DNA of 20,000 bases from an uncultured virus (IMG/VR IMGVR_UViG_2061766007_000922) (Duplodnaviria; Heunggongvirae; Uroviricota; Caudoviricetes): IMG/VR virus record IMGVR_UViG_2061766007_000922; one strand, written 5' to 3'. The stretch's first letter is position 1, and each line of letters begins with the position of its first letter. The translations under genes were made by a program, and so were the position numbers. Shown here piece by piece: positions 6,139 to 19,265 of the stretch. The notes beneath the pieces were generated by a model. The model was not told where the DNA came from, did not search any database, and was given only the letters and a program-made list of their open reading frames with translations.

Positions 6139-8196
6139 ATAATGACCGCCAACGGTCCGAAATCGTTGCCCGGAAACACCATTGCAAAAGCAAGTGACGT
6201 TCAAAATGTCGAAAAAAAATTTGATGTGGTTCCTAGCATATCGTTTAGGACTGTTGTCGATAATTTACAGGGACTGACAACGTCCGAATACAATAATTCG
6301 GACGGACAGATTGAAGTCTTGTCCAAACGGTACATTGCAAGTGACGGCTCTTTGGTTGAGGAAAACGACACTACAGTCTCGGATTATATACCAATTTCCG
6401 GAGGAATAAGCAGCATCGAGTTCTGTAATAGAGACATTGATGGAAGATTAGGTGTTGCTTTCTACGATACGAATAAACAATTTATATCGGGTGTAAGCGC
6501 CGGAGCGACTGGTACGCTGATTGCGTATAGTTGGTACTATTCAAACGTGGTCCCGCAAATTCCGGAAGGGGCTGTCTATATGCGCGTTGCAGGAAATGTA
6601 CCGCTAGGACATTCCATAAAATTTACGTGCGAAGAAAAAATAGTACCTCCGCCCGGTGTAGATTACTTGACTGCGGAAGAAATAAGCAGAAACACGTTGA
6701 TGTCTGTGGAAGGCATTGTAGATAACGAGGTGGAGTATTCGGCAATAGAATCGACAAACTATGCTATAGGCACAGATGGTTCCTCGGTATCATCTGACAA
6801 CAGCTCAATATCTGACTACATCAAGATTACTGGCCCTATTCGCGAAATAACCTATTGCAACCATACGGGCGATTCTCTCGGTGTTGCTTTCTATGACACG
6901 AATAAACAATTTATATCGGGCGTGGACGCCGGAGCGACTGGTACGCTGATTGCGTATAGCTGGTATTATTCAAATGTAATACCTCAAATTCCGGAAGGGG
7001 CTGTCTATATGCGTATTGCCGGAAATGTCCCACTAGGGCATCCTCTTTACCTCGAAATGGTGAAAACTTCTGTAGAATCCACAAAGGCTATTCGACCGGA
7101 TGTTGGTTACGAATTTTTCACGTATAATGTAGATTGTAGCGTTGACGACACGGACGATTCTTTGCAGACAACTTCCTTGCAGGAAGAACCCGTAATGTCG
7201 GCAGACAACGGACTTATAATGCTCCCCAGCGGTTACTCCGCAAACGGCAAGCCTTGTCAACTTGTCGCTTTCAACCACGGTGCTGGCGGTACTGTTACTG
7301 ATAATAGCGCAAGCGGGTGGACGTCTTCTTCGATTAAACTATTGCTTAAACGTGGTTATGCTGTTCTTTTTGTCAACGGAATACCGCAAGCGTTCCGCAA
7401 TACGAAGTATTGCAACGGTGAGCAGAACGGTGCCGCAGCGCACATGGCAGGAATTATATTCTTGAGGTCGTTCAAAAAGGCATATGATTATGTAGTATGC
7501 AAGTACAACGTCACGAGAGAAATAGTGGCTCTCGGAGAAAGCATGGGTGGACTAGCCGCTTTGAATATAGCCTTGAGCGGAATTGTCCCTGTAAGAGCCG
7601 TCGCATTGGACGCACCAATAATCGACTTGTATCGTGACGCTTATTTTTCGGGCGCATGGTCTTCCGGTACATTGGGTGCAGGTACGTTCGGCATCATTGC
7701 CTGGATGTATCAGTTCCGAGGCTGCGACTTTGTAAACGACACGTACACGATTGACGGAACGACACGCAATATGGCGGACTTGCCGTCATACCCGGAAGAC
7801 TGCGAGGCATTGTGGGAGTTGAACAAGGATAGGGTGGCGGCGTTCAACGCATATTTGACGTCCAACGCACTTGTCAAGAACTTGGACAACGAATACGTCT
7901 ATGACAAAAATTCAGATAATTGCCCGGACTACTACGCCAAGGCACTAAGATGTCCGTGCAAAATTTGGTTCGGCACGGATGACAACGTAAACAAGTTATT
8001 CATCACTAAGAACTTCGTGTCACTTCTCCGTAATGCAGGGACTCCGGTTTGGATCCGCGAGATACCAACATCGACTCATTGCGTATGGAATATGACAACT
8101 ACATCCGGCGGCGTTGATACTTCTATTGTAGAGGATGGCCTCACTTGCGGAGTTTGCGGTGTTGAACTTCGCAATTGGATTGACAGTATAGTATAA
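6139..8196 (+). CDS. Tail appendage protein, allele B (5' end lost in gap): two tandem beta-rich repeats plus a C-terminal alpha/beta hydrolase (esterase-like)
   Basis: HGAGG oxyanion-type motif, GESMGG (GxSxG nucleophile elbow), candidate Asp in FGTDDNV and His in STHCVW. Starts with the 56-nt segment shared with 5495-5550. Confidence 0.75.
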   Translation: MMTANGPKSLPGNTIAKASDVQNVEKKFDVVPSISFRTVVDNLQGLTTSEYNNSDGQIEVLSKRYIASDGSLVEENDTTVSDYIPISGGISSIEFCNRDIDGRLGVAFYDTNKQFISGVSAGATGTLIAYSWYYSNVVPQIPEGAVYMRVAGNVPLGHSIKFTCEEKIVPPPGVDYLTAEEISRNTLMSVEGIVDNEVEYSAIESTNYAIGTDGSSVSSDNSSISDYIKITGPIREITYCNHTGDSLGVAFYDTNKQFISGVDAGATGTLIAYSWYYSNVIPQIPEGAVYMRIAGNVPLGHPLYLEMVKTSVESTKAIRPDVGYEFFTYNVDCSVDDTDDSLQTTSLQEEPVMSADNGLIMLPSGYSANGKPCQLVAFNHGAGGTVTDNSASGWTSSSIKLLLKRGYAVLFVNGIPQAFRNTKYCNGEQNGAAAHMAGIIFLRSFKKAYDYVVCKYNVTREIVALGESMGGLAALNIALSGIVPVRAVALDAPIIDLYRDAYFSGAWSSGTLGAGTFGIIAWMYQFRGCDFVNDTYTIDGTTRNMADLPSYPEDCEALWELNKDRVAAFNAYLTSNALVKNLDNEYVYDKNSDNCPDYYAKALRCPCKIWFGTDDNVNKLFITKNFVSLLRNAGTPVWIREIPTSTHCVWNMTTTSGGVDTSIVEDGLTCGVCGVELRNWIDSIV
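6451..7041 (+). repeat. Intragenic domain duplication, 6451-6612 vs 6880-7041 (429-nt offset)
   Basis: Both copies encode GVAFYDTNKQFISGV(S/D)AGATGTLIAYSWYYSNV(V/I)PQIPEGAVYMR(V/I)AGNVPLGH. Differences are mostly synonymous. Confidence 0.9.
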
Positions 8197-8468: not shown

Positions 8469-8506
8469 AACAAATTAACAAAGGAGGAACTCCCCTATGC
8501 CTTACA
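8457..8506 (+). repeat. About 50-nt conserved junction, repeated at 12290-12338
   Basis: GCAGCACTTTAAAACAAATTAACAAAGGAG(G)AACTCCCCTATGCCTTACA spans a stop codon, an RBS and the start of an MPY... gene in both places. Confidence 0.9.
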
Positions 8507-9296
8507 CAGACAAATTCCTGATTCACCCATACCGGGCTCAATGTTGCCGCGAGCCAGTGAACTCACATTGGCTGATTTGCTGCTGCTAATTCAACCCGGT
8601 AATCCAATCGGACAAAGAAACAAAAGTTTGACTTTGGAACAACTTTCAAACTTTTTAAAAAGTGTTTTTGAGGACAAACTGGCAGTTAAAGAATTGGACA
8701 TTCTTGGAAATGAAGATTCCACCGCCCAAATTCCAAAAGTTAGCGGATGGAAACTGGTAACAGATACAGACGTTACTTCACCCACCTATGGACAATTAAT
8801 TGTTACTTGTGAAACAACGCCCGGCGCTTACCCGGTTGACAAACCAAATGTGGTAAACTTTCCGCATATTACTATAGGAAAGTTGCACGCCACAGGTGCA
8901 GCAACATTTGAAAAAGATGTTACAATAGACGCCGATTTGAATGTAGCAAAAACAGTCACATTCAAAGACTTTAAACCACAAATAAGTAATTTATTAAAAA
9001 TTACGGACGTATCACAAACAAATTACACTTACGAACCGACCGAACAAGACACGCAAGAAAAAGCGCTTTCAGTTCCGGCAAAAATTATAGTAAACGCCTC
9101 CGCAATAGAACATCGGTTGCTATTTGCGGGACCGCAAATAAGTCCGGGCGGTTATGTTTCCATGAATGTTGTGTTGCCCGTTGGTTATGCGGTTACACTA
9201 ATTCCAGTTGATGCCCTTCAAGATATAGTTACTGGCACATGGAAAACACTTTTTGCCGTAATTGGCGGAATGGATAAAAATTTATACACACCATAA
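8497..9296 (+). CDS. Tail fibre/appendage-like protein. True start is probably ATG 8497 with a 1-nt frameshift near 8510; intact ORF from 8541
   Basis: AAGGAGG RBS lies 9 nt before ATG 8497 (MPYT...). The frame of 8541 extends back as QIPDSPIPGSMLPRASELT to 8511. Beta-strand repeats (TFEKDVTIDADLNVAKTVTF). Confidence 0.55.
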
Positions 9297-9682: not shown

Positions 9683-9809
9683 TTGCTTTGGTACCACATT
9701 GAACTCTTTGTGCGCAATGCAGTTTATTTGCGTTTTACATCAAGTAACGCAATCAGCAACATACAACGAATGGGCGCCGCTAGGAAATGCTACGGTAACC
9801 TGGTCGTAA
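9681..9809 (+). CDS. Orphan 3' fragment of a gene, probably an alternative allele of the 8497 gene
   Basis: Open frame DCFGTTLNSLCAMQFICVLHQVTQSATYNEWAPLGNATVTWS* followed by AGGAG and ATG 9822. Confidence 0.35.
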   Translation, partial: DCFGTTLNSLCAMQFICVLHQVTQSATYNEWAPLGNATVTWS

Positions 9810-9821
9810 AGGAGATAAAAC

Positions 9822-9847
9822 ATGGCAAGTACATTCGGTGAATTTAG
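9822..9847 (+). CDS. Start of an unknown gene (MASTFGEF...), cut by a gap
   Basis: AAGGAG RBS followed by ATG at 9822. Confidence 0.4.
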
Positions 9848-9969: not shown

Positions 9970-12150
9970 ATGGGTAAACGATTTAGACAACTTACACAGA
10001 CGGCAATCGATGCGGATCTTGTCGAGGGTAATTACTTCGGGGTCGATACTCCGAAAGTAACAAAGAAAGTACCGGCGAACTTGATTGCAAAGCAAAGCGC
10101 ACTCGAGACGACGAACGGCAACGTAACGTCGCTCACCACCTACTCGCAGAACGTGGCTGCGAGTATCGCCCCGCCGTTTGACCCGACGAGGAGTTACGTT
10201 GCCGGTGAAAGTTGCACATACGGAGGCACCGCATATACATTCACGTCCAATCATCCGGCTGGCGCATGGAATGGAAACGATGCTATAGCCTTCTCTACGA
10301 ACAGCTTATATGCGTTGAAGTCTAGGGCTACGACTAATCCTCGTTTCTATTGGATTAAAGAACTTTCTCTACCTTCCACAATTCCCGCCAGTTCCGTTAG
10401 CGGTATCCGTGCTTGGTGCTCTTATCCCAATAACGACAATACTGAATGGTGGACTGGCATTCAGGTAATTGCAGGAAACGAGTTCTATAATTTCTATCGT
10501 ATATTCGATAACCAAACGGATGCTTCATCTTTTGCAACATCAATTTTTGACATGGCCAATAATCATGGGCGTTTGCTTGCATTTGTTGATTGGGATGCTA
10601 TTGGAGGGGTTGGTCATAAGTTTGAACTTTCGAGAGCGATGCTTACTCCCGACTGCAACAATGTGGCTTATATGCCAACTCTGAACGAATACGAAATTGA
10701 AAAAAAAATTGAACTTGAAAACACGAATGACAAAGAGGCGATAAAGGTATATCATCTCACCCTAGCTGCTGGTGTTCCTTCTTCAAGTACCAATCGTGCA
10801 TCTAGTGGTTTTATACGCACGTACAAGAACTCTAAAATCGTTTTTCAAAACTTGCATAACATGTATGTAGGTTTTCAGATATACTACTACGATGTGCTTG
10901 GTAGGTACATTAAGAATGACACGACACACTGGACTAACGAAACTATTGACCCGAACAATTCGTTTGTTTTGGATTGCGTTGAAGATGGTTTCGTCCGTTT
11001 CTTGTTCCGTATAAGATATGACAATACTATTACCGATGAAATTATTGGGAAACTTGAAAATGGTATAAAAGCGATTGCAAAGGAAAAGATTTGGCAGAAC
11101 GGGAAGAAAAACTCGTTTGACATTTTTACGGATGTCATTGCGGATTCGTACTATTCGCAGTTTGCAGACAAGGTGAACAATTCTGCAACGACAAAACTTT
11201 TTGCGATGCAGACCGACACGCATTACTCCTATTTTAACGGCTATTCCTCGTACACACAGATTAGGCAGATGCGAAAAGCTTTAAAACTCGCCCTAGTTCC
11301 TACGATTGTTAATTTGGGCGACCTTTGCAATGGATGGTGTCCGAAGCCTTCGCATTGCTCGGATGTTATGCACGCAATTTGGGACTACTCTAAATTCGGA
11401 AATGCGTACATACAACTTGTCGGCAATCACGATGATAATTCTTGGTGGGAACAAAATTATGGTGCGAACAAGCCTGCGGGTGTTATAACTCCAGAAGAAT
11501 GGCACGATATGGCGTACAGCAAGACGAAGGACTACGGAGTGTATATGCCATATGGTAAACGTTACGGCTCTTATGACGATGTGCCAAATAAGGTTCGATA
11601 CATTTTCCTTGACACACTTGATATTGACTACACATTGCTTAATGCAGATGGCACATTGAAATATGAAGGACAATGGAAATCGGCGATTAGACAAGAACAA
11701 CTTGATTTCCTTTGTCAAGCATTGTTGACCCGTAGGGATTTCCGAATTGTCATTCTTTCGCATCACCCTCTACATTCAAATGGAGGCGTTGTCAATAGCG
11801 ACCTTGTCCGTGGAATACTTGAGGCTTACAAGAACAAGACAACATATACTGGAACATCTACCATTACCGACTTTGAGGCTTCCGTTTCTGTAGATTTTAG
11901 TGGAGATGGGACGATGGTGAACGCAAAACTTGTGGGATGCTTCAATGGTCACACACACGCAGATGCTATTGTTCTTGAAAACGGAATCAACTATGTCGGT
12001 ACTACTTGTGCCTTTGTTCCGAGTGATTCCCAAGATAGAAGCTATAGCGATGAAACAATGAATGCCTTTGATGTTGTCGCTATAACGAGTACCACATGCT
12101 ACTTGTATCGCTTCGGATATGGAAGTGACAGGTCTTTCGTTTTTGGGTAG
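9970..12150 (+). CDS. Tail appendage protein, allele C, with a C-terminal calcineurin-like metallophosphoesterase
   Basis: Intact 726 aa with all five motifs: QTDTHY (DxH), LGDLCNG, VGNHDDN, SHHP, NGHTHAD. N-terminal QNVAASIAPPFDPTRSYVAGESCTY...YTF...GAW is shared with the 5297 gene. Confidence 0.8.
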   Translation: MGKRFRQLTQTAIDADLVEGNYFGVDTPKVTKKVPANLIAKQSALETTNGNVTSLTTYSQNVAASIAPPFDPTRSYVAGESCTYGGTAYTFTSNHPAGAWNGNDAIAFSTNSLYALKSRATTNPRFYWIKELSLPSTIPASSVSGIRAWCSYPNNDNTEWWTGIQVIAGNEFYNFYRIFDNQTDASSFATSIFDMANNHGRLLAFVDWDAIGGVGHKFELSRAMLTPDCNNVAYMPTLNEYEIEKKIELENTNDKEAIKVYHLTLAAGVPSSSTNRASSGFIRTYKNSKIVFQNLHNMYVGFQIYYYDVLGRYIKNDTTHWTNETIDPNNSFVLDCVEDGFVRFLFRIRYDNTITDEIIGKLENGIKAIAKEKIWQNGKKNSFDIFTDVIADSYYSQFADKVNNSATTKLFAMQTDTHYSYFNGYSSYTQIRQMRKALKLALVPTIVNLGDLCNGWCPKPSHCSDVMHAIWDYSKFGNAYIQLVGNHDDNSWWEQNYGANKPAGVITPEEWHDMAYSKTKDYGVYMPYGKRYGSYDDVPNKVRYIFLDTLDIDYTLLNADGTLKYEGQWKSAIRQEQLDFLCQALLTRRDFRIVILSHHPLHSNGGVVNSDLVRGILEAYKNKTTYTGTSTITDFEASVSVDFSGDGTMVNAKLVGCFNGHTHADAIVLENGINYVGTTCAFVPSDSQDRSYSDETMNAFDVVAITSTTCYLYRFGYGSDRSFVFG

Positions 12151-12208
12151 CCCAATTGAAGGACGCGACCACTAGCCCTTAGAAATTATAACATCAAGGA
12201 GACAAATT

Positions 12209-12301
12209 ATGTACAGAATAATGGCGAGATTTCCTGCGCCCTTTGGTCGAGGCGGCGGTGACTGCCCTTGCAGTGTACGCAGCCGGTGTGCAGCACTTTA
12301 A
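12209..12301 (+). CDS. Short or internally deleted counterpart of the 8211 ORF
   Basis: AAGGAG RBS, MYRIMA...CAAL*. Same position after an appendage gene and same 3' end as 8211-8468. Confidence 0.35.
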   Translation: MYRIMARFPAPFGRGGGDCPCSVRSRCAAL

Positions 12302-12349
12302 AACAAATTAACAAAGGAGAACTCCCCTATGCCTTACAANNNNNNNNNN

Positions 12350-12439
12350 AATAACACCTATCGCAGTTGGTTAATGTACTATAGGGGCTCTTTCAGCACC
12401 AGCGCCTTCGACGTTAGTTATAGGAGCTGCGCGGTTGCG
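12350..12439 (+). repeat. DGR variable region (VR), visible part
   Basis: Aligns without gaps to 13016-13105 with 18 mismatches, all at TR adenines. Confidence 0.95.
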
Positions 12440-12454
12440 CTCTTGGAATATTGA
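12350..12454 (+). CDS. 3' end of the DGR target gene (C-type-lectin-like C-terminus); the rest is in the gap
   Basis: NNTYRSWLMYYRGSFSTSAFDVSYRSCAVALLEY*, TGA at 12452-12454. The W...G...R-x-x-A-V pattern resembles DGR CLec target C-termini. Confidence 0.85.
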   Translation, partial: NNTYRSWLMYYRGSFSTSAFDVSYRSCAVALLEY

Positions 12455-12468
12455 TTATTAACTTATTT

Positions 12469-12488
12469 GCAATCCCTTACGGGATTGC
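12469..12488. promoter_or_regulatory. DGR target-recognition hairpin/cruciform downstream of the VR/IMH
   Basis: GCAATCCC-TTAC-GGGATTGC: perfect 8-bp stem with a 4-nt loop (GTAA on the - strand), starting 14 nt after the target stop codon. Confidence 0.8.
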
Positions 12489-12498
12489 GGAGCTTAAT

Positions 12499-12969
12499 AT
12501 GAACAAGGACTACAAGGCAAAGCTTCTAGAAAAAGCTGGAATTTATGTAGACTGTTGCCAGCTTCTCAAGTGCGTGTACAAGTTGCTTTTTTCAATGCCG
12601 AAGAAAGACAGGGTTATTATCGGTGACAAGATTATAGAATACAACTTGTCCATGATAGCCCACTTTTCTAAAGGGTTTCAGTTCAAGGAATGTAGGCTTG
12701 CAGAAATTGACTCGTTCCTTTTCGACTTCGCTAGGATGAAGGCTCTTTTACGCATGGCAAGCGAATTAAAGATTTTATTGCCTGCCAAGTATGTCCTATT
12801 GTTTGAATACATAGAGAGAATAGACGAAGGCGTTGCAAAGTGGCGTAATGCTTCAAATGCAACAAAGTCCATGCAGTCGCGGAATCAAACTACGTCCGCG
12901 GCTATGGGTTGTAATAATCAAGAGGTGGCTACGGATTCATTCAATCCAGTTTCGGAAGTGAGCCACTAA
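12499..12969 (+). CDS. avd: DGR accessory variability determinant (Avd-like four-helix bundle protein)
   Basis: GGAG RBS and ATG 12499, 156 aa. IY...LL...Y......MPKKDRVIIGDKI...KALLRMASELKIL...IDEGVAKWRN matches the bAvd/four-helix-bundle pattern. Lies between VR and TR. Confidence 0.85.
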   Translation: MNKDYKAKLLEKAGIYVDCCQLLKCVYKLLFSMPKKDRVIIGDKIIEYNLSMIAHFSKGFQFKECRLAEIDSFLFDFARMKALLRMASELKILLPAKYVLLFEYIERIDEGVAKWRNASNATKSMQSRNQTTSAAMGCNNQEVATDSFNPVSEVSH

Positions 12970-12985
12970 CCTTTCGCGCCGCGCG

Positions 12986-13106
12986 TTGGGTGTGTCGCGC
13001 TGGTGTTGCTCGCGTAATAACAACAATAACAGTTGGTTAATGAACAATAGGGGCAATTTCAACAACAACAACTTCAACAATAGAAATAGGAGCTGCGCGG
13101 TTGCGA
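12986..13106 (+). ncRNA. DGR template repeat (TR). 13016-13105 is alignable to the VR; the 5' boundary is inferred
   Basis: 15 of 30 codons in 13016-13105 are AAC/AAT. Ends in the GC-rich GCTGCGCGGTTGCG shared with the VR. Directly follows avd. Confidence 0.92.
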
Positions 13107-13116
13107 NNNNNNNNNN

Positions 13117-13236
13117 ATTGAACAAAAACGAAGGATGTGGCTATTTGTCGAAAAGGCTTTGTCCGAGTTCAAAAATGTATTATATTGGAATAGTGAGAAA
13201 AATTCTTTTTCGACAAAGGAACCAAAGCACTCATGA
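13117..13236 (+). CDS. 3' end of a gene after the gap; candidate C-terminus of the DGR reverse transcriptase
   Basis: IEQKRRMWLFVEKALSEFKNVLYWNSEKNSFSTKEPKHS*. Called on position (after TR) only; no catalytic motif is seen. Confidence 0.35.
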   Translation: MEQKRRMWLFVEKALSEFKNVLYWNSEKNSFSTKEPKHS

Positions 13237-13282
13237 CATCGAAATTATAACTACCATTATCGCATACATCGGAGAACTTATT

Positions 13283-13567
13283 ATGTCCAATTCCAACGAA
13301 AAAGAAAACGAAAAATGGAGAAAATTCCTCCAGCCAATCATCACCGGCCTTGTAGCCATGATGACCGCTGTTGTGGGCTACTTGCAGTATTTGCAGAAGC
13401 AGGAGAGCGACAGGCGCGATTCCCGCATTGCCGTTCTCGAAGTGCAGGTAGGCGAGCAGTCCAAGCGCAGCGACAAGTTCGATGTCGATATAGACAACTT
13501 CAAGACACTGCTCTCGGACATACGTTCGGACGTGTCATTTATCCGAGGGAAGATGGAGAAGCGCTGA
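13283..13567 (+). CDS. Holin-like protein (one transmembrane helix plus coiled coil)
   Basis: GGAG RBS and ATG 13283. FLQPIITGLVAMMTAVVGYL is followed by RIAVLEVQV...IRSDVSFIRGKME. Upstream of the putative lysin. Confidence 0.55.
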   Translation: MSNSNEKENEKWRKFLQPIITGLVAMMTAVVGYLQYLQKQESDRRDSRIAVLEVQVGEQSKRSDKFDVDIDNFKTLLSDIRSDVSFIRGKMEKR

Positions 13568-13659
13568 TGTGGATTATTACGTTGCTAATGGTGCTAGGTT
13601 CGCTAAACGCGGAGTTTACCGATGATAAAGAAAGCATTGATAACGGCAAACGTGATTAA
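13567..13659 (+). CDS. Small hydrophobic peptide (MWIITLLMVLGSLNAEF...)
   Basis: TGATG coupling with the upstream gene; hydrophobic N-terminus; 30 aa. Confidence 0.4.
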   Translation: MWIITLLMVLGSLNAEFTDDKESIDNGKRD

Positions 13660-13695
13660 CTTGGTCACGTTCGTTTACTTTATCTTGGAGAATTT

Positions 13696-14211
13696 ATGAA
13701 TAGAACAAAATGCACCGTCAAAAGCGTAAAGGCTTCGCCGTTCATTACAACCGCCGGGCGCCCCTTTGTATTTTTGGGCGCCGCCCGCATTTTGCTAGAA
13801 CTTGTTCGAACATATACGGACGGCACAACTGAAAAAGCGTTGCTTACCATTAAAATTCGTCCGGGCTACAAAACGGACGGGGCAAGCACATTTTTCCCGA
13901 TTTCGTTGCTTGTACCGCAATGGGTTCCGGGTGACGACAATTACAACGCCGCCCCGGTTGCTCACGATGTGTTGTACATGCTCGGCGGTATAGTCGATGG
14001 TGTACACGAGCCCGTGAAGTTAAGCCGCGAAGAAGTGGATGACATTTTGCGCGGTGTCTGGCGTTGCTGGGGAATGTCCCGCTTTGTTGCAGCGTGCGCA
14101 GACAAGGGAGTCGAGGTTTTCGCGGGCGGAAAAGATCACTGGGGCAATGATTGCTATAACGTGCGCCAATTTGTTGATGTAAAATGGGAGGTGGCTGCAT
14201 GCTCACGCTAG
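13696..14211 (+). CDS. DUF1353 family protein
   Basis: PGYKTDGAS...YNAAPVAHDVLY...SREEVDDILR. Variant 3' ends recur at 14367-14466 and 15008-15194. Confidence 0.75.
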   Translation: MNRTKCTVKSVKASPFITTAGRPFVFLGAARILLELVRTYTDGTTEKALLTIKIRPGYKTDGASTFFPISLLVPQWVPGDDNYNAAPVAHDVLYMLGGIVDGVHEPVKLSREEVDDILRGVWRCWGMSRFVAACADKGVEVFAGGKDHWGNDCYNVRQFVDVKWEVAACSR

Positions 14212-14356
14212 TACGCTATACTCGAACAGAAACGGCCATTCTAGGCTCTCTTTACCTGAATGGTGCTTTTGTCTGCTACACGCTCGAAAACGAAGCCAAG
14301 GCGATTCCGTGCGGGATGTACACGGTGCAGAACTCGAAAAGTCCGAAGTTCAAGCG
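14199..14356 (+). CDS. DUF5675 family putative lysin, variant 1 (partial)
   Basis: MLTLVRYTRTETAILGSLYLNGAFVCYTLENEAKAIPCGMY...SPKFK, cut by a gap. Confidence 0.7.
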
Positions 14357-14453
14357 NNNNNNNNNNTGAGGTTTTCGCGGGCGGAAAAGATCACTGGAAA
14401 AATGACAGTTATGGCGTGCGCCAATTTGTCGAAGTAAAATGGGAGGCTGCTTC

Positions 14454-14827
14454 ATGCTTACTCTAGTCCGCTACACTCGAACAGAAACGGCTGTTCTAGG
14501 CTCTCTTTACATGAATGGTGCTTTTGTCTGCTACACTCTAGAAAACGCAGACAAGGCGATTCCGTGCGGGATGTACACGGTGCAGAACTCGAAAAGCCCG
14601 AAGTTCAAGCGGGAATTGCCGTTGCTATTTAGCTCGAACGTTCCGCAATCACGCGGTATAAGGATACACCGCGGAAACACGGCTAAGGACTCGCAGGGGT
14701 GCGTCCTTGTTGGCATGGGGCGAAGTACAGAGAAATCCTCGGTGACTGAATCCACAAACGCCGAGGTCATGGTAACGATGCTGTGCCGTAACGAAACGAA
14801 TCTTGTCATTGTCGATAACTACAAGCA
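14454..14827 (+). CDS. DUF5675 family putative lysin (L,D-transpeptidase-like His/Cys motif), variant 2, nearly complete
   Basis: CYTLEN...AIPCGMY...SPKFKRELPLL...VP..RGIRIHRGNTAKDSQGCVLVG. Confidence 0.8.
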
Positions 14828-14837
14828 NNNNNNNNNN

Positions 14838-14997
14838 ACGAGTCCACCACAATGCGCGCCTTGCCCTTCGTCGGCTTCTGGAAACATCCAGGAATGGCAA
14901 TGGCGGCATCAAGGCCGAATCTCGAAGATACGGATGGCGCCGCGTTCTTGTCTCCGTTCTTCCACGCGGAAATATCCTGCTCCTGGAATACGAGAAG
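14838..14997 (-). CDS. Misplaced fragment of a variant Gp138-like spike gene
   Basis: Reverse complement encodes LLVFQEQDISAWKNGDKNAAPSVSSRFGLDAAIAIPGCFQKPTKGKARIVVDS, nearly identical to about 2002-2160. Flanked by N gaps. Confidence 0.8.
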
Positions 14998-15181
14998 NNN
15001 NNNNNNNCCGCGAAGAAGTGGACGACATTTTGCGCGGCATTTGGCGTTGCTGGGGAATGTCCCGCTTTGTTGCAGGGTGCGCAGACAAAGGTGTTGAAAT
15101 TTTTGCTGGTGGAAAGCAGCACTGGAAAAATGACAGTTATGGCGTGCGCCAATTTGTCGAAGCAAAATGGGAGGCGGCTGC

Positions 15182-15425
15182 ATGCTCACGCTAGTCCGCT
15201 ATACTCGAACAGAAGAGGCCATTCNNNNNNNNNNTCCGCCAAGGCGATCCCGTGCGGGATGTACACGGTGCAGAACTCGAAAAGTCCGAAGTTCAAGCGA
15301 GAGCTCCCTCTTCTGCATAACGCACAAGTTCCGGCAAGCCGTGGCATCCGCATTCACGTTGGCAACACCGTGGCGTCGAGCAGCGGCTGCGTCCTCGTTG
15401 GCATGGGCCAAAATGGAGACAGGCT
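15182..15425 (+). CDS. DUF5675 family putative lysin, variant 3 (gapped)
   Basis: MLTLVRYTRTEEAI...KAIPCGMY...RGIRIHVGNTVASSSGCVLVGMG. Confidence 0.7.
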
Positions 15426-15769: not shown

Positions 15770-16948
15770 CTCGATGGTATTTATGCCGCAATCAGTAAAG
15801 CAGTCCGCATAATCAGAAATGGTGGCAGAAGCTTCCATCTGTTCATACATTTCCACCGCCCCGGATTCTACATTTATACATCCTTTAAACATTCTAGTTA
15901 CATCTACAGCGCTTGATGTATCAAAGAACGGAAGATTCTTCAAAGAACTACAATTACTGAAAAGTCGTTCGAAGTTTTCAACATTTCCCGTGTTTCCGAT
16001 AAATTCTACATTTCTTAAACTTGTACAATCTTCGAGCATTGATTCTATAGATAACGCACTAGACACATCTATTCTTATATACTCTAGATTTTCGCACTGT
16101 TTAAACGCCGAATTGAAATCGGTGCCATTTGAAGTTTCGTAGTCCGGAACTTCCTTCAAAGATTCACAGTTAAAAAATAGGCTGTTAAAATTAGTACACG
16201 ATGAAGTGTCTAAATCAGGAGCCGTTTCCAACGCAACACATTGGCTAAATGTTCCGTTTAAACTTTCTACGTTACCCGTATTTTTTAGAACAACTGTTTT
16301 TAACTTTGAACATCCATAAAACGCTTGGTAGCATGTTGTAACACTTGGAATATCTAGATACACACTTTCAAGGTTTGAGCAATTTCTAAACGTTGTATAT
16401 AAATTTTCTACGTTGGAAATATTACCAATGCGTACATCTTTTAATTGCGTACAATTTGTAAATGCAGCATTTAAAGATGTGCAATTTTCAAGTGAATCAA
16501 TATAAACGCTCTCAAGATTTGAGCAATACCCAGCGAAGTACGAGGTGGTTTCTACATTGTTCGCACCTGTAAGAACAATATTTTTTAGGTTCGAGCAGTC
16601 TTCGAAAAATGATATCGCGGAGCCATAAATTCCCGAGACATTCTGTAAATCGGCATTTATTAGCGAAGAATTATTATAAAATAATTCATACGCATTTAAC
16701 GAACTTTCAAAGACTTTACACCGGACACTTACAAGATTTGCGGAATCGTGAAAAGCGTTCTTAAATTCCCCGGAAGTGCTAACGCCTTCCGTGGTCCAGT
16801 CCCATTCGTTTTGGTTGCTGGACTCTACCTTTGTCCATGTGCCATGCGTTCCAACGCCTGCAACGGTCGGGTCATAATCGGGCAGGCTGAACGTAAAGCG
16901 TAAAACGTTGTCGGGGATGTCCATAATGTCCACGTAATCGACAACGAA
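15770..16948 (-). CDS. BspA/DUF285-like leucine-rich repeat region; apparently the C-terminal part of the gene starting at 17558
   Basis: About 22-23-aa repeats FxxCxxLxxV/DTSSxxxxxxMFxxC. Its N-terminal 83 nt overlap the end of the adjacent contig (16866-16948 vs 16960-17042). Confidence 0.8.
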
Positions 16949-16958
16949 NNNNNNNNNN

Positions 16959-17558
16959 AGTCGGGTCATAATCGGGCTTGCTGAACGTGAAACGTAAAAC
17001 GTTGTCGGGGATGTCCATAATGTCCACGTAATCGACAACGAACGGCATCCCGTTATCGTCATTCACGATGTAGCCGCCTTCGCCCTCTTCGGCGCAAAGG
17101 AACGTCCCACGAACAAGCGAGGCGCCGCTTGTCATGCTGTTCTTCTCAAGGTTCGACAAGTTCGCGTCCGTTCCACCGTCAAGAACGTAGTACATTTCTG
17201 CGGGCCAGTTCGGAAAAAGGCCGACTGAATCTACACCCGTGAGGAACTTTATAACCATGCGCAACGCTTCCGGCCCCGGAAGGTTCAATAGGTTCAAACC
17301 GCTTACGATCCGTTCGCGGTATTGCGTGTCGCTTTCACCCGGATTGCGCTTTACGCCGACGATTGCGCCCAAGTAGTCCAATGCGGGTCCTATGGCGTCG
17401 GCAAGGTTCAAGGCTTGCAGAATTTCAAAAAAGGCCGTCTCAAGGTCGTCAAATTGCGCCATGCAGGAATTGACGAGAGCCAGAAGTTTCTCGCTGTTCT
17501 TGTACTGTTCCGGGATGTACTTCTTGAACTCTTCCTTGTAAGGTACTATCGTTTCCAT
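16959..17558 (-). CDS. DUF2612-like baseplate wedge protein of the second phage variant (N-terminal part)
   Basis: AGGAG RBS, METIVPYKEEFKKYIPEQYKNSEKLL...DAIGPALDYLGAIVGVKR.PGESDTQYRERI...GTFLCAEEGE. Homologous to the 4628 gene. Confidence 0.8.
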
Positions 17559-17592
17559 TGCAATAAACTCCTGTAAGACTATTATCAACGAT

Positions 17593-19265
17593 TTACGTTG
17601 CCGGCGTCAGCGTTATGCGGTCGGTAGAAAGAACGGCGTAATCCGTGCTTGAAACGGGTATAGTGTCTGTCACATAGTTTGGGCTGTCCGTCAGATTTTC
17701 CGTCAATGCGACCTCTATCGAGCATTGGCCAACTCCAGGAACGCCGTAAATGCCTTGATAGATTCGGTCTGGAATTACGTCCTTTCCGATGTTGTACTCG
17801 ATGTCGGCCCACTGCAAGATTGCCGCCTTGAGCGTTTCTATGCCTGGGAACGTCTCTTCGTCATAGAGTCTGTACGTTATGCGCACCCAAAGATATTTTG
17901 CGCGTGGTCTCGAAAACGAGATCATCTGCCTGTCGCCATCTTCGTCAACAATTTCTACGGACGTGTTGCCNNNNNNNNNNATTAGCTCCTGTAAGACTGT
18001 TCTCGACGATTTACGTTGCCGGCGTCAGCGTTATTCGGTCTGTCGAAAGAACGGCGTAATCCGTGCTTGAAACGGGTATAGTTTCCGTCACATAGTTTGG
18101 GCTGTCCGTCAGATTTTCCGTCAATGCAACCTCTATCGAGCATTGGCCAACTCCAGGAACGCCGTAAATGCCTTGATANNNNNNNNNNNNNNNNNNNNNN
18201 NNNNNNNNNNNNNNNNNNNNNNNNNNNNNNNNNNNNNNNNNNNNNNNNNNNNNNNNNNNNNNNNNNNNNNNNNNNNNNNNNNNNNNNNNNNNNNNNNNNN
18301 NNNNNAATCATCTGCCTGTCGCCATCTTCGTCAACAATTTCTACGGACGTGTTGCCGTATGGCTGTATTCCGCTCGGCTGGTTCTTCCAAACGCACATTG
18401 CTACATCGTAATCATCGCCGCCACCTACAAGCGCCTCAAAGCTCTTCGGAGGTCGCCCCTCGTTGTCCGTTGTCATATTGCGGTTGCTCGTTACGGATGC
18501 CGCCGTTACGCCAGGAACATCGTTAAGAAGGTGCGCCTCGATTGACGGGTCTGTGCCGCAGGACTTGATGGATTGCGCATAGATTGCGCGCCTTACGCGA
18601 AGTTCATCGTCAGTTTCCGCATCACGGCCTGGAACGCCAACGACAAAATTATACACCGCGTCAAAACCGGTAACGGAGCCACTAACGGCATCGAGTTCCC
18701 CGATGTCGCAAGTCTGCAAGCCTTCGGTTACAGCGGTAAAAGAGCCTGTATTTCCGGCATAGATGTTGAAATTGTCCGGTAGCTGGCCCGTTATGCCTAC
18801 AGTAGAACCGTCAACCCATACGGCGAGCCGTCCGCCGTAAAATTCGGCCTTGCCTCCTGCTACAATGATAAGCTGGCGTAGCCTGTAAAGGTTGCTCTGT
18901 TCTGTCGAGTTGTTAAGCGTAACATCGCCAAAAGTGAAATGGAAAACGTAGTCCGTGTTCTTCTGGCTTCCGTCATCTTCAATCATGAGCTTTTCGCAAG
19001 CCGAACGGCTTACGGTAACGGAAGAATCAAGAGTAAAGTCAAGGTTGCCGCGTGTCCTTACGGCTGTAGCACCTTGAGGGATAGTAGCCGACGAATCGAG
19101 CGTGAAGGCGACTGCGTTCACTGAGCACGCCCTCGCAGACTGTCTCGTAATGCCGTTAAGGGCCGCCGCGAAGTCAAGCGAGACGCCTACGGCTTGCGCC
19201 GGGTCACGGCTTGAGAATACCTCGAAGGCGAGTTCCCAGGCATTCGAGAATCCGAGAGCGAGTTG
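17593..19265 (-). CDS. Baseplate J-like protein of the second variant (gapped; C-terminus present twice, stops at 17593 and 18011)
   Basis: QLALGFSNAWELAFEVFSSRDPAQAVGVSLD...GRDAETDDELRVRR...NQPSGIQPYGNTSV...ISFSRPR. Collinear homolog of 3167-4612. Confidence 0.85.

Follow-up and report, generated by a model that had tools for sequence, protein, structure and literature searches.

A 20,000-nt stretch of DNA from an uncultured virus of the Caudoviricetes (IMG/VR record IMGVR_UViG_2061766007_000922), hereafter called the window, contains at positions 12350-13106 the visible part of what is very probably a diversity-generating retroelement (DGR). An earlier note, made from the letters alone, had proposed such an element here, with a variable repeat (VR) and a template repeat (TR) on the two sides of a gene for an accessory variability determinant (avd) in a phage tail module. 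The region forms a 757-nt contig that holds the end of the VR, avd and the TR, with a scaffold gap of ten N (N10) on each side. The gaps appear to conceal most of the target gene, in which the VR lies, and most of the reverse transcriptase (RT) gene. The features at the locus are listed below, including a short segment comparable to the initiation of mutagenic homing (IMH) element of known DGRs; the related loci mentioned were found in metagenome contigs.

12340-12349, no strand: N10 scaffold gap abutting the VR; it conceals the target gene body together with the opening 41 nt of the VR.
12350-12454, + strand: 3' end of the target open reading frame (ORF), 34 codons and a stop (...SCAVALLEY*); the frame is open from the gap to the stop at 12452-12454.
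12350-12439, + strand: VR, with 90 of its 131 nt visible, including the entire adenine-bearing part.
12426-12439, + strand: G+C-rich 14-nt end common to VR and TR (IMH-like), with 11 of 14 bases G or C and divergence at the next base.
12469-12488, + strand: inverted repeat, a predicted hairpin or cruciform, stem of 8 bp and loop of 4 nt (TTAC, 12477-12480), 29 nt past the VR.
12499-12969, + strand: avd, encoding 156 aa, with the ATG at 12499 and the stop at 12967-12969, between VR and TR.
12975-13105, + strand: TR, 131 nt, with limits transferred from five relatives.
13107-13116, no strand: N10 scaffold gap abutting the TR; it conceals about 1049 nt, the main part of the RT gene.
13117-13236, + strand: 3' end of the RT gene, 39 codons and a stop; the encoded residues share 95% identity with the C-terminal end of the RT (387 aa) from the related locus L020.

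Two repeat searches detected a direct repeat between 12350-12439 and 13016-13105, in which 90 nt aligned without gaps at 80% identity with a start-to-start distance of 666. All of the 18 mismatches were located at adenines of the TR (7 A>T, 6 A>G and 5 A>C). As the 90-nt TR stretch contains 38 A, the hypergeometric probability of all 18 mismatches falling on the 38 A of 90 positions was P = 8.9e-9. The alignment with adenine-only mismatches described in the earlier note was reproduced exactly. The same was true for the codons, as 13 of the 15 AAY codons were changed in the VR, and the recomputed translations of the TR (NNNNNSWLMNNRGNFNNNNFNNRNRSCAVA) and the VR (NNTYRSWLMYYRGSFSTSAFDVSYRSCAVA) agreed with those given before. 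The A-rich copy on the TR side has an N-rich translation and is non-coding, and the VR copy ends an ORF. The ORF track supplied with the sequence had called the TR coding, which the note had considered wrong; indeed, the ORF in question (12986-13567) runs through both the TR and the gap and is spurious.

The pairing of 90 nt thus stood, but the TR itself turned out to be longer than the 90 nt first assigned to it. In the five relatives, the VR/TR identity extends over exactly 131 nt, with unrelated sequence flanking both ends, and by homology the TR of the window occupies 12975-13105, starting 6 nt past the stop of avd. The first 41 nt (12975-13015) contain no A at all, and the remaining part (13016-13105) bears all 38 A, including those of the 15 AAY codons. 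The hidden 41 nt of the VR would accordingly be invariant, because the matching part of the TR has no A. In contigs from two public sequencing runs (X1 and X2), the VR extends upstream into sequence homologous to TR 12986-13014. No further VR was found in the window when both strands were scanned with any change allowed at A and up to eight mismatches at other bases. In theory, the TR of the window could give rise to 4^38 variants as DNA and to about 1.9e21 different proteins free of stops.

Relatives that carry the whole cassette were obtained by scanning metagenome contigs with the Avd protein, which detected 12 loci with Avd segments 94-98% identical. The complete cassette was present in five of the 12 (L012, L014, L015, L016 and L020), all on one strand, in contigs of up to 56 kb. 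The gene order in these relatives begins with a tail-fibre-type gene of ~960-1000 codons, an 'MPY...' gene of 338-367 codons and a gene of 143-147 codons, the last of which was seen in four of the five complete-cassette loci. They are followed by the target gene of 492-494 codons (...CCAVALLEY*), avd, the TR, an RT gene of 374-387 codons and late genes matching the window from 13117 on. Distant cassettes in the same order, with Avd 34-50% identical, were found in four of 151 genomes of the family of the nearest genome, all in one genus. A search for related loci with the single Avd protein gave none in genome contigs or viral contigs, and one with the target alignment gave none in genome contigs. 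An exact 33-nt pattern of the TR was absent from the viral, genome and metagenome contigs, the TRs of the relatives differing at one base within it. In public data, the element was detected in 20 runs, which belong to 12 studies and are mostly metagenomes of the bovine gut.

The RT deserved particular attention, since the earlier note had held that the element would be reduced to a remnant or a trans-dependent one if no DGR-type RT was linked to it. Searching the 20-kb window by tblastn with a related DGR RT gave nothing significant, and no RT body was found. The end of an RT gene was located at 13117-13236, directly past the TR-side gap; its 39 codons were recognised only through alignment to near-identical relatives, to which the DNA identity across 13117-13274 was 92-93%. 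The metagenome contigs, whose Avd is 94-97% identical, aligned at 92-93% to 12352/12364-13106 and restarted at 13117-13274, and 1049 nt of the relatives (6609-7657) had no counterpart in the window. Contigs from four public runs (X1, X2, X3 and X9) were also compared over window positions 11900-13700. Single contigs of X1, X2 and X3, three of the four runs, connected 13106 to 13120 with 1052 letters intervening. Run X9 gave no contig spanning the TR-side gap, only loose ends; the end at 13106 was letter-identical to L012 6609-6638, directly past the TR, and the end at 13120 was letter-identical to L016 7631-7660, where the RT residues NSYIGYMKNI are encoded. The 39-codon RT end, the bridging contigs, the loose ends of X9 and the 1049 nt of the relatives together led us to conclude that about 1.05 kb of the RT gene is represented by the N10 gap. 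Judged from these alignments, the apparent absence of an RT is probably an assembly artefact; a linked RT is represented by its end in the window and by about 1.05 kb of RT sequence in independent contigs.

The RT of L020 scored 46.7 bits against Pfam RVT_1 (cut-off 29.6), and a sequence comparison with the PDB gave a single match at E<=0.001, the RT of the BPP-1 DGR (8ub7_A, E 1.9e-10). The best matches among 50,697 phage records were the RTs of Bacteroides phages F2, F4 and Bacuni_F1, with 31-34% identity. All of the eight full-length related RTs that were aligned (L020 6614-7777 and seven others) contain IGFL[C/V]WQ (that is, IGxxxWQ) and FVDD; the RT body of the window lies in the gap. The signature of DGR RTs has been given as (I/V/L)GxxxSQ in domain 4 (PMC3521204 and PMC7826257). 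The relatives conserve its I, G and Q, and the S is replaced by W. In the former source, the last two signature residues vary in 15 of 155 elements, and WQ is not among the variants listed there. The clean A-only pattern of the VR/TR pairs indicates that the RTs of the relatives still mutagenise adenines.

For the ORF between the repeats, which is preceded by a GGAG motif just ahead of its ATG, the note had claimed a likeness to Avd. The sole or top matches in Pfam and NCBIfam searches were bAvd (PF22296; 27.2 bits, E 5.7e-6) and DivGenRetAVD (NF033474; 22.8 bits, E 8.8e-5), respectively. The proposed comparison of 12499-12969 with the bAvd family was thus borne out in the identity of the top match but not in its score, which fell below the gathering cut-off of 40; the score against NF033474 was likewise below its cut-off of 80. 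The protein also matched PHROG 3206 ('Avd protein of DGR') with E 8.2e-7, and shared 33% identity (E 2e-22) with the avd product of the complete DGR in the nearest genome compared (G001, contig C28) and 27% (E 2e-14) with the protein annotated as bAvd in Bacteroides phage F2. A sequence profile of nine Avd proteins did not reach BPP-1 Avd in the PDB, where the best match was an unrelated protein (E 0.047). The AlphaFold (AF2) model built from nine homologues (pLDDT 79.4) was superimposed by Foldseek on BPP-1 Avd (4dwl) with a TMt of 0.86 and an rmsd of 1.8 Å over 107 columns, and gave TMt values of 0.90 with 2gsc and 0.76 with the Avd chain of the DGR ribonucleoprotein (8ub7_B). On the sub-threshold HMM matches, the homology and the predicted fold, the product of 12499-12969 was accepted as Avd, and the claim of an Avd-like gene between the repeats holds with an ORF of Avd-type predicted fold.

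The position of the VR at the C-terminus of an ORF was also confirmed, as the frame is open to the stop at 12452-12454 and the VR of the relatives ends an ORF of 492-494 codons. The C-terminus CAVALLEY* likewise ends the 492-494-aa target proteins of the relatives. A tblastn search of the window with the 494-aa target of a relative found only the TR and the VR and no gene body. Neither the target nor the 'MPY...' protein nor the 143-147-aa protein belonged to any family in Pfam or PHROGs. A structural model was considered for the target of L020, built from 48 sequences (pLDDT 84.1, 494 residues), of which the window holds the counterpart of only 34 residues. Foldseek of the whole 494-residue model gave no match at E<=0.001. 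Exhaustive alignment by VIA-align ranked a Bacteroides protein (4eps; Z 15.0, 198 residues), the C-terminal domain of Legionella Lcl (8q4e; Z 11.2) and the C-terminal domain of Bdellovibrio Bd2740 (8oks; Z 9.7), together with two DGR variable proteins, TvpA (2y3c; Z 7.3) and Mtd (1yu0; Z 6.1). Of the remaining entries among the 50 listed, the majority were animal C-type lectin domains with Z of 6-7.5, which is a middling range, and the C-type lectin signal came from VIA-align only. From this coherent list at middling Z, the modelled VR-bearing domain was read as a C-type lectin fold.

Over its N-terminal ~75 residues (L020 4472-4711), the target showed 44-48% identity with the N-termini of two other proteins, the adjacent one of 143-147 aa (L020 4036-4275) and a 491-aa protein in G001 (L004 11014-11253), the latter GDSL-like by eye. 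This common N-terminus looks like a virion-docking module for interchangeable tail-tip proteins. Upstream of the element, the window encodes a baseplate J protein (Pfam, 46.5 bits against a cut-off of 21.1), proteins matching baseplate wedge PHROGs and a DUF2612-like protein. The earlier suggestion of a receptor-binding tail protein was therefore sound as to its baseplate and tail module context, but the body of the target is not within the window, and the putative receptor-binding role, plausible as it is, rests on the contiguous contigs of the relatives and on a scaffold of partly unreliable order. Among the database homologues, P0026 and P0047 had C-termini resembling the unmutated TR (...SRNNNNNSWLMNNRGNFNNNNFNNR...AVAN); they are probably assemblies or gene calls that join the target to the TR rather than to the VR.

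Activity in the lineage was examined by comparing elements. The mismatches between VR and TR fell on A in 19 of 19 cases in L015, 15 of 16 in L020, 15 of 15 in L016, and 18 of 18 each in L012 and L014. The latter two are identical and were counted once; the five cassettes total 85 of 86 mismatches at A. Eighteen positions of the TR differ between elements, and wherever the TR base is not A, the cognate VR has the same base. Two TR bases specific to the window, T at position 73 and A at position 116, both recur in its VR. Such concerted bases in TR and VR are what repeated copying from TR to VR predicts. When the VR of the window was compared with that of the X1/X2 contig, nine of the ten listed differences were at TR-A sites.

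The diversity of the target was also analysed at the protein level. Of 99 target homologues, 26 were dropped as truncated, chimeric or containing indels, and the 73 in register gave 72 distinct C-termini. Over these 72, the Shannon entropy averaged 3.00 bits at the 15 AAY codons, none of which fell below 2.37. The mean was 1.31 bits at the six codons with a single A among their first two positions, and 0.78 bits, with a maximum of 1.97, at the 23 codons without such an A. The contrast was significant in the Mann-Whitney test (P 1.4e-7), for sequences that are mutually related and derive from other samples. These comparisons indicate DGR activity at the level of the lineage rather than of this strain.

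Two features, one at the 3' end of the VR and one downstream of it, were considered as the target site. The IMH concept comes from the BPP-1 literature, and by analogy the G+C-rich stretch at 12426-12439 may function as an IMH-like boundary; in the five relatives, the VR/TR identity stops at the same base. The inverted repeat at 12469-12488, folded as DNA, gave -14.8 kcal/mol with a z of -4.3, and none of 200 shuffles equalled it. Of the 12 metagenome loci scanned, L012-L022 share the stem and L023 lacks it. In all 11 hairpin-bearing loci the sense-strand loop was GTAA, the exact reverse complement of TTAC in the window, as if the loop of the window copy had been inverted across its palindromic stem. 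In phage DGRs, stems of 7-10 bp with 4-nt GRNA loops located 4-34 bp after the VR have been described, and the loop sequence was critical in BPP-1, as reported by Guo et al. in 2011 (PMC3240598). The relatives could represent a clade that combines an IGxxxWQ and FVDD RT with clean adenine-only mutagenesis, in which loop inversion might be a natural switch that lowers or stops tail-protein diversification in individual lysogens. The idea follows from the critical role of the loop sequence for homing in BPP-1; it is speculative, and we would not expect it to prove right.

The adenine-specific VR/TR pair, the Avd fold, the VR at the 3' end of an ORF, the phage tail module and the linked RT end upheld the DGR interpretation of the earlier note. 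We have high confidence that the region is a canonical prophage DGR in the order target-avd-TR-RT, located between tail-fibre-type genes and lysis and late genes. As part of the same reading, and with the same confidence, the short-read scaffold would have broken around the repeats, and this alone would account for the bodies of the RT and target genes missing from the window. The DGR of the window is probably complete. Its working can be proposed by analogy with the BPP-1 paradigm. The TR (12975-13105) would be transcribed, and RT together with Avd would copy the TR RNA to cDNA, misincorporating opposite the 38 template adenines. The cDNA would then replace the VR at the 3' end of the target, with the G+C-rich common end as a guide and the downstream hairpin as a helper. 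As a result, the 15 AAY codons and seven other A-bearing codons would be recoded in the predicted ligand-binding, C-type-lectin-fold tip of a tail-module protein of ~493 aa, with a theoretical yield of ~2e21 protein variants.

The scaffold around the element needs to be considered before this reading is weighed. The 20-kb window contains 22 runs of N. On the 3' side, 13117-14356 is a single contig that carries both the RT 3' end and the downstream DUF1353 gene. On the 5' side, the alignment of the relatives to the VR side begins only at window position 12352/12364, and the gap at 12340-12349 would conceal ~2.9 kb if the gene order of L015 is assumed. A segment at 9693-9847 is a 97% match to the L015 sequence just upstream of the target region. 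A 2.5-kb contig (9858-12339), which is absent from the aligned relatives, stands between this segment and the VR, and the local order upstream of the VR is uncertain because of this split. Elsewhere, 13696-15425 holds three interleaved partial copies of a DUF1353 and DUF5675 gene pair, with N10 gaps between them, and at ~16875-18024 a tail-fibre or DUF2612-like 5' region is duplicated in inverted orientation. The source genome probably carries several related prophages that were tangled by the assembler.

Several observations count against the assignment of an intact canonical DGR. The scaffold round the element is a mosaic of related prophage pieces, and the linkage to the upstream tail genes is therefore made here by scaffolding, without continuous sequence. 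The RT and target bodies of this genome were unseen, so the intactness of its RT is deduced from the relatives. None of the four public runs is clearly the source, the X1 contig showing 18 differences over 640 nt. The evidence for VR variation is a comparison of contigs between samples, not of reads from one sample. Two departures from the adenine rule were also found: one VR/TR mismatch in L020 (T>G) is not at A, and the tenth difference between the VRs of the window and X1/X2 (12430) is at a TR cytosine. The latter could derive from a TR difference in the X1/X2 strain, as the TR contig of X1 has one unlisted difference. Avd misses both curated HMM cut-offs. The relatives' RT has IGFLCWQ and FVDD against IGNLFSQ and YVDD in phage F2, so that the SQ dipeptide is not strictly kept. 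Finally, the loop TTAC of the window is flipped with respect to GTAA of the relatives, and neither matches the GRNA consensus.

Three other explanations were weighed against these data. If the repeat were an assembly duplicate or an ordinary diverged paralogous repeat, the very short, gap-bounded contig would be understandable, as repeats often break short-read assemblies. This is effectively refuted by the distribution of the differences, 18 of 18 of which are at A of one copy with the P value given above, and by the same asymmetry in independent contigs from other samples; moreover, one copy forms the end of an ORF whereas the A-rich one does not code, and avd and RT genes lie alongside. It is unlikely, though a less extreme case, that a real DGR was misplaced by the scaffolder and that the 757-nt contig and its flanks come from different related prophage copies. 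The many N runs, the interleaved DUF1353/DUF5675 copies, the inverted tail-fibre 5' duplicate, and the separation of 9693-9847 from the VR by the 2.5-kb contig would all fit such an event. However, the continuous contigs of the relatives place the cassette after tail-fibre-type genes and before genes matching 13117-14356, and the RT 3' end shares one contig with the downstream DUF1353 gene. Even with a wrong local order, the element would still be that of a prophage of such type.

The cassette could also be an RT-less or RT-defective remnant, the VR being a fossil of past diversification or dependent on an RT in trans. The tblastn search that found no RT body in the 20-kb window is in line with this, as is a prophage in G001 (contig C21, L004 9511-12489) that is syntenic with the window. 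It encodes a 494-aa target homologue with a diversified-looking ...CAVALLEY* end, after which the 491-aa GDSL-like gene stands in place of avd, TR and RT. This orphan target indicates that cassette loss occurs in the lineage, and the flipped hairpin loop of the window could impair homing as well. On the other hand, the 39 codons at the end of the RT gene follow directly on the gap, intact and in frame, the contig ends exactly at the TR end, and three public and five metagenome contigs fill the junction with 1049-1052 nt of RT sequence. The window VR, which has the window-specific T73 and keeps A116, further points to homing after the TR diverged from those of the relatives. We therefore regard a remnant as very unlikely and retain the reading of a canonical DGR interrupted by scaffold gaps. 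G001 also has the different complete DGR on its contig C28, the TR of which does not match the VR of L004.

Two neighbouring genes are mentioned here as side observations. At 12290-12339, the ribosome-binding-site region and first codons (MPY...) before the gap resemble, by eye, the gene start at 8541 (~8480-8550), and an 'MPYPPRQIPD...' gene sits two genes upstream of the target in the relatives. Position 12330, where this 'MPY' ORF begins, therefore probably marks the beginning of a gene of tail-fibre type and not that of the DGR target. Further upstream, 6139-8193 encodes a 685-aa tail-module protein with an esterase or alpha/beta-hydrolase domain (Pfam Esterase, 22.3 bits with a cut-off of 22; Abhydrolase_6, 24.1 bits, under the cut-off of 26.3) and with a weak match to a 'neck protein' PHROG as well. 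From these matches, it may be a virion-borne deacetylase or depolymerase.

For annotation, the region can be recorded as a DGR comprising the target 3' end, avd, the TR and the RT 3' end. It adds a well-supported prophage case in which a tail-module protein of predicted C-type-lectin fold would be hypermutated, with more than 70 distinct VR states already in public data. The case fits the view of viral DGRs as mainly tail-protein-targeting and constantly active, as put forward in PMC8144416. The general knowledge of DGRs is unchanged; specialists may find small leads in the RT motif variants (WQ, FVDD) and in the flipped hairpin loop.

The DGR of Bordetella phage BPP-1 has the gene order mtd-avd-TR-brt. 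The element described here resembles it in the order of target, avd, TR and RT and in the adenine-only change from TR to VR. The VR is likewise at the 3' end of the gene for a tail-associated protein read as a C-type lectin fold, Mtd (1yu0) aligning with the target of a relative at Z 6.1. The predicted Avd fold, the match of the relatives' RT to bRT (8ub7_A) and a hairpin with a 4-nt loop downstream of the VR are further points in common. The differences are also clear. The identity of Avd is only 13% in the structural alignment, the RT gives only a local match (E 1.9e-10), and the target is an unrelated protein of ~493 aa without a Pfam family. The start codon of the relatives' RT lies only 7-34 nt past the TR, which differs from BPP-1, as do the RT motifs IGFLCWQ and FVDD and the loop TTAC or GTAA instead of GRNA. 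The DGR variable protein TvpA of Treponema denticola (2y3c) and the bacterial lectin-like surface tips 4eps, 8q4e and 8oks were aligned with the target model of the relative, with no common sequence family.

A closer likeness was found in the Bacteroides uniformis phages F2, F4 and Bacuni_F1, which are described in PMC8143477. Their RTs are 31-34% identical over 88% of the length of the relatives' RT. In phage F2, the gene annotated as bAvd follows a hypothetical protein gene and is itself followed by a short ORF and then by the RT gene; from their positions, the hypothetical protein would be the target and the short ORF would cover the TR. These phages differ in being of human gut Bacteroides, whereas the element here is mainly of bovine gut metagenomes, in the canonical IGNLFSQ and YVDD kept by the F2 RT, and in target proteins that are not evidently related. 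Viral DGRs with C-type-lectin tail-protein targets have been catalogued at scale, including rumen biomes (PMC8144416), and a possible prophage DGR is mentioned in a rumen virome paper (PMC11080232). By most of its defining features, the element belongs to the DGR family typified by BPP-1, and its nearest known systems are the DGRs of Bacteroides phages.

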